Shown: positions 41,931 to 43,203 of the stretch, piece after piece
Layout: each line of letters begins with the position of its first letter
Numbering within the stretch: the first letter of the stretch is position 1
Source: a virus
Reading direction: 5' to 3' (one strand)
DNA: 64,000 nucleotides
Virus record (IMG/VR): IMGVR_UViG_3300044630_006441
Location: 81,197 to 145,196 of that record
The notes under the pieces: model-generated
Databases searched by the model: none
Told to the model about the DNA's origin: nothing
The model's input: the letters and a program-made list of their open reading frames with translations, nothing else
Translations under genes and position numbers: made by a program

Positions 41931-42166
41931 GATTGAATCCTCGTTCGTTCATCATCGTCCGTTTCACCTTTGATCGCCCCACCGGTCAGGGCACTACGCA
42001 CATTACGCAGGATGCCTGCAACCAGAGGGCCAATCTCAGGTTGATACCCGCCCCATTCACACAGGGGCAGTCTTTGTTCGAGCGTCGACAGGAAAGCGTC
42101 TGCTGCTGTCCAGCCAGCCATTTCCACGGCGTCTCGAAGGTCCTTGGGGAAGTCTTCCAGCCTCAT
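41927..42166 (-). CDS. Hypothetical protein
   Basis: Start MRLEDF at 42166, TGATG-coupled to GT gene. Confidence 0.55.
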   Translation of the reverse strand: MRLEDFPKDLRDAVEMAGWTAADAFLSTLEQRLPLCEWGGYQPEIGPLVAGILRNVRSALTGGAIKGETDDDERTRIQS

Positions 42167-43203
42167 CAGACCTCCTCGTAGTCGCTGCAATTCTGGCAAG
42201 AGCGAATGCCATCGCCATAGTCCCTGAAGGGACGGCATTTTTCGTGAAGCTCACAGCTATAAACAAATTTGAGTGGGCAGTTGCAATTCCCGGTGTCGAT
42301 CGGGGTCGCGCTTCTGTGAAAGCACGGCAAGCTTCGTCGAACTGCTTGGACTGTACGAAAGCGTTCAGGGAAAACACCTTGGCTGGGATCAAGAGCTTCC
42401 GCTTCAGCAACGACGGCTTGCAGATTGGCCTCTGCAACTTTGGGAGTGAAGTGTTCAATGACATCCTGGTAGGGCAAGCCAAGCTCACGACGGCCAAGAA
42501 TATAATTGAAAATTCGGTCTTCCAAGAACAAGCGATATGGCACGCCTTTGGGTCGACCGAACCGGTGTAGCCAAGTCATCCAAGGGACACACATCGCCTG
42601 TCCGCCGAACAAGCGGACCTTGGAATGTATATACCCCTCTTCACCACCAAAGCCCCTGAACAGGGTGTTGAAGCCTGGCCATTCGTTCCTGTTCATCATG
42701 AACTGACCCAGGCCCTGCATGGGGATGGGGAACGGCTTTCCTTCTTTCACGCGTTCGTCGGTCGCCCAGGTTCCGTACATGCTGTCACGCCACACGGGTT
42801 CAAAGTGTGTGGCTAGATTGATGTGGTCATCGTACAAAAGCGGGCCTTGGTAGAGATTCTTGGGATTGGCTTCTCCCGACCGAATGAATTCTTTGGTCTT
42901 GGCCACCACATCCTTCGTCAACAACACATGGCTGTCGAGGCACATGACCCACTCGCCCTGCGCTTCTTCAAAAACAAGCTGTCTGGGCAGGGAGGTGCCA
43001 TTTGCATGACCTCGGTGGAGATAGCGAGCCTTTGCCCATTCCGCCGCGCTCTTGGTGTGCGGGCAACCGTTGGGCAGGTTGTCCACCACAACGATTTCAA
43101 CATCGGTCAGATCGTGATAGGCACGCAACGCTTGGATGGTGAAATAGACCCCGTCGTAATCGTCGTAGGTCGCCATTCCGATAGTGAGAAGTGGTCCAGC
43201 CAT
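42166..43203 (-). CDS. GT-A glycosyltransferase (GT2/GT27-like, DxH + GGE) with C-terminal Cys-rich domain
   Basis: VVVDN, CLDSHV, PMQGLGQF, GFGGEE, VP...LHRF; 8-Cys tail; SD AGGAGG. Confidence 0.8.
   Translation of the reverse strand: MAGPLLTIGMATYDDYDGVYFTIQALRAYHDLTDVEIVVVDNLPNGCPHTKSAAEWAKARYLHRGHANGTSLPRQLVFEEAQGEWVMCLDSHVLLTKDVVAKTKEFIRSGEANPKNLYQGPLLYDDHINLATHFEPVWRDSMYGTWATDERVKEGKPFPIPMQGLGQFMMNRNEWPGFNTLFRGFGGEEGYIHSKVRLFGGQAMCVPWMTWLHRFGRPKGVPYRLFLEDRIFNYILGRRELGLPYQDVIEHFTPKVAEANLQAVVAEAEALDPSQGVFPERFRTVQAVRRSLPCFHRSATPIDTGNCNCPLKFVYSCELHEKCRPFRDYGDGIRSCQNCSDYEEV

Follow-up and report, generated by a model that had tools for sequence, protein, structure and literature searches.

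The 64 kb stretch analysed here (in the following, the window) is the last part of a 145,196-bp virus record from IMG/VR, which is 97% complete and belongs to a freshwater phage. On its minus strand, an open reading frame (ORF) at 42166-43203 codes for a glycosyltransferase (GT) of 345 residues, which is the subject of this report. Translation starts with ATG, and this start agrees with that of 39 homologues. An earlier note, made from the letters of the window alone, had described the product as resembling the polypeptide N-acetylgalactosamine (GalNAc) transferases of family GT27 and had proposed that it initiates mucin-type O-glycosylation of threonine (Thr) tracts in phage fibres. The ORF and all motifs listed in that note are present, in the order given there. 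The note had also placed the gene on the virion-gene strand, and indeed it lies at the end of the block headed by a tape measure gene (PF10145); no conserved gene of the tail-tip block follows it. On its 3' side lie convergent plus-strand genes.

The motifs of the GT comprise VVDN39, D90-S-H92, P161-M-Q-G-L-G-Q-F168, and G184-F-G-G-E-E-G-Y191, followed by K195-V, G199-G, V206-P, and H213-R-F215; a QGP motif is found at residues 119-121. In an alignment of 40 family members, the invariant residues are D41, D90, H92, Q119-G-P, H133, G186, G187, E189, K195, R197, C205, W211, H213-R-F, and R217. This invariance argues that the motif residues are functional positions and not chance resemblances. 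Pfam assigns a single domain, PF00535 (Glycos_transf_2; residues 8-111, E 2.3e-9, 37.8 bits against a cut-off of 23.3). PHROGs returned no match, and NCBIfam matched only exopolysaccharide (EPS) glycosyltransferases, far below threshold. We assign residues 1-280 (42364-43203, minus strand) to the catalytic GT-A part, with the domain itself beginning at residue 5, based on PF00535, the invariant columns, the structure model, and the GT27 folds and GalNAc-T7 motif alignment described below.

The remaining residues, 281-345 (42166-42363 including the stop codon, minus strand), form a Cys-rich C-terminal tail of 65 residues with seven cysteines (positions 294, 307, 309, 317, 323, 336, and 339). 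This tail occurs in this phage clade only (P0001-P0011 in the alignment), has no Pfam match, and gave no usable match in an Atlas search; it is possibly a zinc-binding module. The highest Kyte-Doolittle mean over 19 residues anywhere in the protein is 0.74. There is thus no hydrophobic segment that could serve as a membrane anchor, and the GT is predicted to be soluble and cytoplasmic. A 103-residue ORF (41927-42238) which overlaps the 3' end of the GT gene was considered as well; it is probably no gene, having no homologue in related loci.

Fold and relation to GT27

An AlphaFold2 model of the GT, computed from 40 homologues, has a mean predicted local distance difference test (pLDDT) score of 84.5. 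The score exceeds 90 over most of residues 1-280 and stays below 50 in the last 60 residues, which belong to the Cys-rich tail. When this model was searched with Foldseek, ranks 1-46 among the matches listed were all chains of polypeptide GalNAc-transferases (ppGalNAc-T; best E 4.6e-14). VIA-align, run against 48,161 representative chains, placed mouse GalNAc-T1 first (Z 22.1, 265 residues aligned, root-mean-square deviation 3.5) and Toxoplasma GalNAc-T3 (TgGalNAc-T3) second (Z 21.1), followed by the chondroitin polymerase K4CP (18.1), TarS (17.4), AvpGT (17.1), and TarP (15.9).

The relationship is much fainter at the level of sequence. Among PDB sequences, phmmer with the single GT sequence found no GT27 member. 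A profile of the C-terminal half (43 sequences) had human GalNAc-T7 as its sole PDB match, which was weak (E 0.085). In the resulting alignment, PfeiPmqGlGlF is paired with PYRSPAMAGGLF, GfGGEEgy with IWGGENFE, and lrWlHrF with SRVGHIY. The aligned region includes the position of the third metal-ligand histidine, with residues that differ in the GT (FGGEE, HRF). We take D224, H226, and H359 to be the metal ligands of GalNAc-T2; their counterparts in the GT are D90, H92, and H213. The GT27 enzymes at the top of the fold comparisons and the motif pairing with GalNAc-T7 together indicate that the GT, as modelled, is GT27-like in architecture and probably also in metal binding.

The comparison of GT27 against GT2 which the earlier note had called for was thus decided in favour of GT27 at the level of structure, as both searches rank GT27 above every GT2 and the C-terminal half aligns with the GalNAc-T7 motifs. 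The assignment as a GT27-type enzyme stands with respect to fold and motif order. The features of GT27 that are present comprise a GT-A domain with DxH, equivalents of PTMAGGLF, WGGEN, and GHVFR in this order, and GT27 as the closest fold. Missing are a significant sequence similarity or a match to Glyco_transf_7C, the ricin B-type lectin domain, and the N-terminal anchor with its stem. Formal membership in GT27 is ruled out by the lack of significant similarity, of the lectin domain, and of the membrane anchor.

Association with poly-threonine genes

The GT belongs to a large family. Thousands of proteins share about 50% identity with its catalytic domain (2892 matches; 1027 clusters at E <=1e-30), at least 463 family loci occur in IMG/VR, and a search of about 185,000 species genomes found the family in 444. 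The main bacterial carriers are Thermomicrobiales and other Chloroflexota, Gemmataceae, Hyphomicrobiales, Actinomycetota, and Desulfobulbaceae.

Genes for Thr-rich proteins are frequent next to the genes of this family. A protein was counted as Thr-rich if some 30-residue window contained at least 15 Thr, and ORFs more than two genes away from the GT served as background. In 22 of 100 GT clusters (90% identity), the next gene upstream in the same orientation codes for a Thr-rich protein, compared to 20 of 2036 background ORFs (p 1e-19); with clusters at 70% identity, this applies to 10 of 59. Adjacency of GT and poly-Thr genes is enriched 17- to 28-fold. The neighbours may be extreme in composition, with runs of T36, T48, and T61 and with one protein consisting of 54% Thr. 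Besides phages, the arrangement is found in Chloroflexota, Actinomycetota, Alphaproteobacteria, and Desulfobulbaceae. When this adjacency was mapped on a tree of 126 catalytic domains, 16-17 changes were required, and well-supported branches force 12 or more of them; the pairing is therefore not a single inherited accident.

Whole viral records gave a similar result. Tracts matching (ACN)10 are present in 24 of 49 GT-bearing viral records and in none of 49 random ones (p 3e-9), the latter having been drawn by means of a random 14-mer. When only records of up to 70 kb are considered, the counts are 12 of 29 and 0 of 43, respectively (p 3e-6). The co-occurrence with poly-Thr genes suggested as a check by the earlier note is thus far above background, in phages as well as in bacteria.

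Because members of the family lie beside poly-Thr genes in many phages and bacteria, the GT probably coats the phage's own Thr-rich fibre proteins with sugar. We thus consider it rather likely that it is a cytoplasmic protein O-glycosyltransferase acting on poly-Thr tracts. We infer the protein acceptor, threonine as the site of attachment, and the effect on the virion. O-glycosylation of Thr tracts as such has a much higher probability than the specific case of mucin-type alpha-GalNAc.

A number of observations weigh against this assignment. Family profiles of the GT match GT27 chains with E values of 0.085-0.5 only, which is not significant; the profile of the N-terminal half has TarS and TarP as its best PDB sequence matches (E 5e-5 to 8e-5); and sequence alone places the GT in GT2 only. 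In the 159 loci of the neighbour analysis, ORFs were called by a simple longest-ORF rule, and the reading frame of the (ACN)10 matches was checked for part of them only. In the reverse direction, of 37 viral records sampled for their (ACN)10 tracts, none carries the GT family, so that poly-Thr proteins mostly exist without such an enzyme, which is no general companion of theirs. Shared habitat or lineage could account for part of the co-occurrence across whole records. In a large viral subclade (L067, L030, L031, and similar loci), the GT gene is part of a replication module and has no Thr-rich neighbour. Finally, neither of the two strongly poly-Thr proteins of the phage studied here is encoded next to the GT, both genes being tens of kilobases away, and its closest relatives likewise lack an adjoining poly-Thr gene. 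The window is a less direct instance of the association than those loci where the GT gene and a poly-Thr gene are adjacent.

The preference of the sequence searches for TarS and TarP, together with PF00535 as the only Pfam domain, would fit an ordinary GT2 which acts on a non-protein glycan, such as a cell-wall polysaccharide, a teichoic acid-like polymer, or a lipid-linked sugar. Such an enzyme would alter the surface of the host, a change that could serve, for instance, in superinfection exclusion, and the poly-Thr neighbours would be incidental. Some sources label homologues as 'glycosyltransferase involved in cell wall biosynthesis', and in bacteria there are fusions of homologues to GT25, GT2, GT9-like, and FkbM-methyltransferase domains, as is seen in polysaccharide pathways, although a fusion of several GT domains would be just as compatible with the assembly of a protein-linked glycan. 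This is the main rival explanation, but we consider it unlikely. The GT has no membrane segment, its fold is nearer to GT27 than to any polysaccharide GT2, and its GT27-like C-terminal half, like the adjacency to poly-Thr genes, would be left unexplained. Moreover, the enriched adjacency to poly-Thr genes is phylogenetically scattered, and the gene closes a tail block rather than being part of a lysogeny or early module.

The replication-module loci show two settings, namely primase, deoxynucleoside monophosphate (dNMP) kinase, PD-(D/E)XK nuclease, and GT, or PolB, a 65-residue protein, GT, and RecA. That the GT gene lies beside a dNMP kinase, PD-(D/E)XK nuclease, primase, or polymerase gene in many phages might point to phage DNA as acceptor, with hydroxymethylated bases being glycosylated as an anti-restriction hypermodification. 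The phage studied here also has a dNMP kinase (20769-21389), and phage GT-A enzymes which act on 5-hydroxymethylcytosine (5hmC) are known (bioRxiv 10.1101/2023.12.21.572611). Nevertheless, an activity on DNA appears highly improbable to us. The 97%-complete genome has no match to ThyS-like hydroxymethylases (PF00303) or C5-methyltransferases (PF00145), whereas control genomes matched; for the TET/JBP dioxygenases (PF12851), there was no match in this genome, but none in any control genome either. The known DNA-modifying GT-A enzymes are JGT/TarP-like with the motifs R...DDD...EDY/F (bioRxiv 10.1101/2023.12.21.572611), whereas the present family has DxH, GGEE, and HRF. Furthermore, bacterial homologues are encoded next to genes for secreted poly-Thr proteins.

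Bacterial Thr-rich neighbours are either small proteins, with Tat-like signals (twin-arginine translocation), Cys-rich modules, and PT6-8 repeats, or membrane proteins. An example from a cultured organism is Rhizocola hellebori NBRC 109834 (L127), where the gene of a 434-residue poly-Thr membrane protein adjoins the GT gene. In L087, L093, L097, L105, and L112, the upstream genes code for proteins which begin with a Tat-like motif (FD.LTK...SRRQALK) and continue with Cys-rich modules and PT repeats. Judged from these sequence features, glycosylation in the cytoplasm prior to Tat export of the folded protein would fit such neighbours. Two further proteins (L091:3234-3974 and L102:12290-13006) have a PqqD-like start (..VVYDQRNRRLHVLSRTAALVWQ..) and share the motif CH(N/R)GxTI...HLAHGDTLG.C; the PqqD-like segments hint at a connection to ribosomally synthesized and post-translationally modified peptides (RiPPs) or to peptide chaperones. 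Among viral loci, L011-L018 code for a poly-Thr protein of 1027-1612 residues, 1.8 kb upstream of the GT.

Members of the family are frequently fused to DUF7164, to DUF6492, to other GT domains, or to a MauE/DoxX membrane domain. Forms of 595-599 residues, in which the GT is joined to DUF7164 (2.9e-50 in P0019), are encoded in the viral loci L008-L019 and L025 and in many bacterial loci; other fused forms carry an N-terminal DUF6492 (3.2e-56 in P0146). Both of these domains may be further glycosylation domains. A precomputed TatA label (PF02416) on P0111 was not reproduced by a Pfam scan at E <=0.01 and was left unused.

Threonine-rich proteins, tail block, and further glycosyltransferases of the phage

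The leading candidate substrate in the phage studied here is a mucin-like poly-Thr protein of 1370 residues (5003-9115, plus strand), which consists of 19% Thr and has 15 runs of at least T4. A conserved N-terminal domain is followed by a T17 tract and by tracts of T5-T9 (ANPNTTTTTTT repeats), which are located between small Cys-bounded modules. In the Thr runs, the codons ACA, ACT, ACG, and ACC are used almost evenly (36, 27, 24, and 21 times, respectively). In the homologues P0265-P0267, a Thr tract of varying length is found at the same site after the N-terminal domain. The use of all four codons and the positional conservation of the tract argue for selection on the protein and not on a slippery DNA repeat. 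A model of the N-terminal domain, built from 4 sequences, has a mean pLDDT of 40.7, which is too poor for a fold comparison. The second strongly poly-Thr protein (22% Thr) is encoded outside of the window (genome positions 9054-10076, minus strand), with an N-terminal poly-Thr region followed by Laminin_G_3 (LamG).

Apart from 5003-9115, the earlier note had listed Thr runs in the tape measure protein, in the product of 11524-12258, and in that of the ORF starting at 1633. It was right with respect to 5003-9115 (T17), the tape measure (T7), and 11524 (T5). ORF 1633 codes for a PT/PG-rich linker, which is devoid of Thr runs.

In the tail block, the minus-strand genes code for a tape measure protein of 4149 residues, followed by proteins of 197, 552, 1140, 169, 129, and 223 residues and then by the GT. 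The tape measure protein (50581-63030; PF10145, PhageMin_Tail, E 2.1e-23) has one T7 at residue 1124. It is extremely long, and the T7 is preceded by a Pro-rich stretch and then by G4. The proteins of 223, 169, 1140, 552, and 197 residues have no Pfam or PHROG family. The 552-residue protein of the tail-tip region (48327-49985, minus strand) has homologues in L022 and L056/57, where the gene order is retained. Homologues of the 1140-residue protein (44921-48343, minus strand), which is encoded downstream of the tape measure in the tail-tip/baseplate region, precede the GT in L022, L023, and L056/57. These are distant phages, with the GT being 42-50% identical, and in L056/57 a 951-residue poly-Thr protein (18% Thr) is encoded between the homologue of the 1140-residue protein and the GT. 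The 169-residue protein (44412-44921, minus strand) has a stretch of 39 residues which resembles part of the poly-Thr proteins preceding the GT in L032/L035 (blastp 49% identity, E 3e-6).

The closest neighbours are a Cys-rich DUF6171 protein of 129 residues (44026-44415, minus strand; PF19668 4e-8, phrog_13558 2e-14), which is kept beside the GT in L002-L007, and a conserved protein of 223 residues (43324-43995, minus strand) from a phage-only family. The latter flanks the GT in L002-L007 (80-94% identity) and in L022/L023 (46-48%); its Atlas matches are viral hypothetical clusters only, which are 89-98% viral. Two Cys-rich modules, the DUF6171 protein and the tail of the GT, thus are encoded close together, and both are conserved in L002-L007.

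The neighbours that are conserved in this clade are thus the 223-residue and the DUF6171 protein and not a poly-Thr protein. This might indicate that the GT modifies other virion proteins, such as the capsid, the tail tube, or the 223-residue neighbour, with the link to poly-Thr applying only to other subfamilies. In mycobacteriophages, the capsid and the tail tube have been reported to carry glycans, according to the account of Freeman et al. (2023) that is given in PMC12619734. We judge this to be quite unlikely for the GT. Across subfamilies, the catalytic domains share about 50% identity and the active-site columns are invariant, which suggests a single type of acceptor. In addition, (ACN)10 tracts are kept in this genome and in its close relatives G001, G002, G003, and G005, and the 223-residue protein has no Ser/Thr tract.

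Separate from the virion genes, a GT cluster is encoded on the plus strand, as described in the earlier note. It comprises three GT-B/GT4-like genes (28971-30572, 30569-31705, and 32418-33482; PF00534/PF13692/PF13439), whose products are possible candidates for elongating enzymes, a GT2 glycosyltransferase (34567-35454; PF00535, 1.5e-17), and a MobA-like nucleotidyltransferase (35433-36137; PF12804, 7.7e-15), which by its domain assignment possibly serves in sugar activation. A GT7-like protein of 244 residues (11524-12258, plus strand), the one with T5 in its C-terminal tail, is borderline (Glyco_transf_7N 5.7e-6, 26.4 bits against a cut-off of 27; Glyco_transf_7C 0.012). The note had counted about six further GT-like genes; we find five, namely four with Pfam support in the cluster and the borderline GT7-like one. 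The last gene of the cluster (37535-38242, plus strand) has weak matches to ATE_C and Acetyltransf_6 (FemAB-like aminoacyl-transferase); its product may modify a glycan or peptide with an amino acid or acyl group.

Several other genes of the window deserve mention. A RecA-like gene (14899-17037, plus strand) has central LAGLIDADG and Hom_end domains according to Pfam and looks like an intein-containing RecA. The DNA polymerase III alpha subunit is encoded by two plus-strand genes, one with the PHP and NTPase domains (24054-25979) and one with the finger, HHH, and OB parts (26876-28534). An RNase T-like exonuclease (26226-26903) is encoded between them, and an HNH/zinc-loop homing endonuclease just upstream (23368-24057). 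A phage sigma factor of 323 residues (355-1326, plus strand) matches sigma-70 region 4 at 1.8e-12 and, weakly, region 2.

Proposed mechanism and comparison with known systems

According to the mechanism that we propose, the GT would be a soluble, metal (Mn)-dependent GT-A enzyme with D90, H92, and H213 as metal ligands, by analogy with GalNAc-T2. With a nucleotide sugar as donor, it would glycosylate the Thr hydroxyl groups in the long poly-Thr tracts of fibre-like phage proteins. This would take place in the cytoplasm of the host, either prior to virion assembly or in the course of it. Likely acceptors in this phage would be the 1370-residue protein and the poly-Thr/LamG protein, perhaps also the T7 of the tape measure. 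Other GTs of the phage may extend the glycan, and the product would consist of mucin-like, glycan-coated linkers on fibres or appendages.

A broader proposal is put forward only tentatively. A large prokaryotic and phage family of GT27-like cytoplasmic enzymes might start mucin-type O-glycosylation on pure poly-Thr. Fibres or appendages would be coated in phages, and small secreted or membrane proteins would be modified prior to export in bacteria. The family might represent prokaryotic and viral kin of the eukaryotic families GT27 and GT60. In the phage studied here, the GT, the GT7-like enzyme, and the GT-B cluster might jointly build a eukaryote-like O-glycan on virion proteins.

If poly-Thr tracts are indeed glycosylated by this family, many environmental phages would produce mucin-like glycoproteins of their own. 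This would have a bearing on how phages recognize their hosts, how stable their particles are, and how well they resist proteases, and also on their adhesion to polysaccharide matrices and their recognition by immune systems. A group of bacterial poly-Thr proteins would likewise be glycoproteins, produced by a cytoplasmic route. A small, soluble, lectin-free enzyme would become available for the glyco-engineering of Thr-rich peptides, and there would be a testable lead on the origin of GT27/GT60. As Rhizocola hellebori NBRC 109834 is cultured, the question can be addressed directly with its gene pair.

Mucin-type O-glycosylation of Thr-rich tracts is regarded as a feature of eukaryotes. To our knowledge, mycobacteriophages are the only phages for which virion glycosylation has been reported so far, and the enzymes involved there are unrelated. 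In full-text literature searches, no publication turned up that describes a GT27-like enzyme of phages together with poly-Thr partners. As far as the work of Freeman et al. (2023) is described in PMC12619734, mycobacteriophage GTs glycosylate virion proteins of their own phage within the cytoplasm of the host; these glycans are located at the C-termini of capsid and tail-tube proteins and not on long poly-Thr tracts. A tblastn search of the GT against 50,697 GenBank phage records gave no match at E <=1e-5, and the enzyme family thus differs from the mycobacteriophage GTs. The phage GTs that act on 5hmC in DNA are linked to 5mYOX/C5-methyltransferase (C5-MT) or ThyS genes (bioRxiv 10.1101/2023.12.21.572611).

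TarS and TarP (5TZE, 6H1J) are soluble GT-A enzymes like the GT, and TarP is encoded by a prophage. In contrast to the GT, they have DxD instead of DxH and lack GGEE and HRF, their Z scores are 15.9-17.4 compared to 22, and their acceptor is poly-ribitol phosphate.

The closest resemblance is to GT27 (human GalNAc-T2, 2FFU/4D0T; GalNAc-T1, 8V9Q; TgGalNAc-T3, 8UHV; GalNAc-T7, 6IWQ), which shares with the GT the DxH, PxMxGxGxF, and GGE(E/N) motifs and the later His, in the same order and with the same spacing. The presumed acceptors of the GT, Thr-rich mucin-like tracts, are a further likeness. In contrast, sequence identity is only about 14-17%, and the GT has neither the ricin-type lectin domain nor the signal anchor and stem. 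It would be cytoplasmic, whereas GT27 enzymes reside in the Golgi, and its 65-residue Cys-rich tail is found at the place of the lectin domain. CAZy family GT60 had no entry among the structure matches listed for the GT model. This family (pp-alphaGlcNAcT, a polypeptide alpha-N-acetylglucosaminyltransferase, of Dictyostelium and Trypanosoma cruzi; Skp1 Gnt1) consists of eukaryotic GT-A enzymes with DxH which are related to GT27, are lectin-free, and have Thr-rich mucin-like acceptors. Its member Gnt1 is soluble and cytoplasmic, as is predicted for the phage GT.

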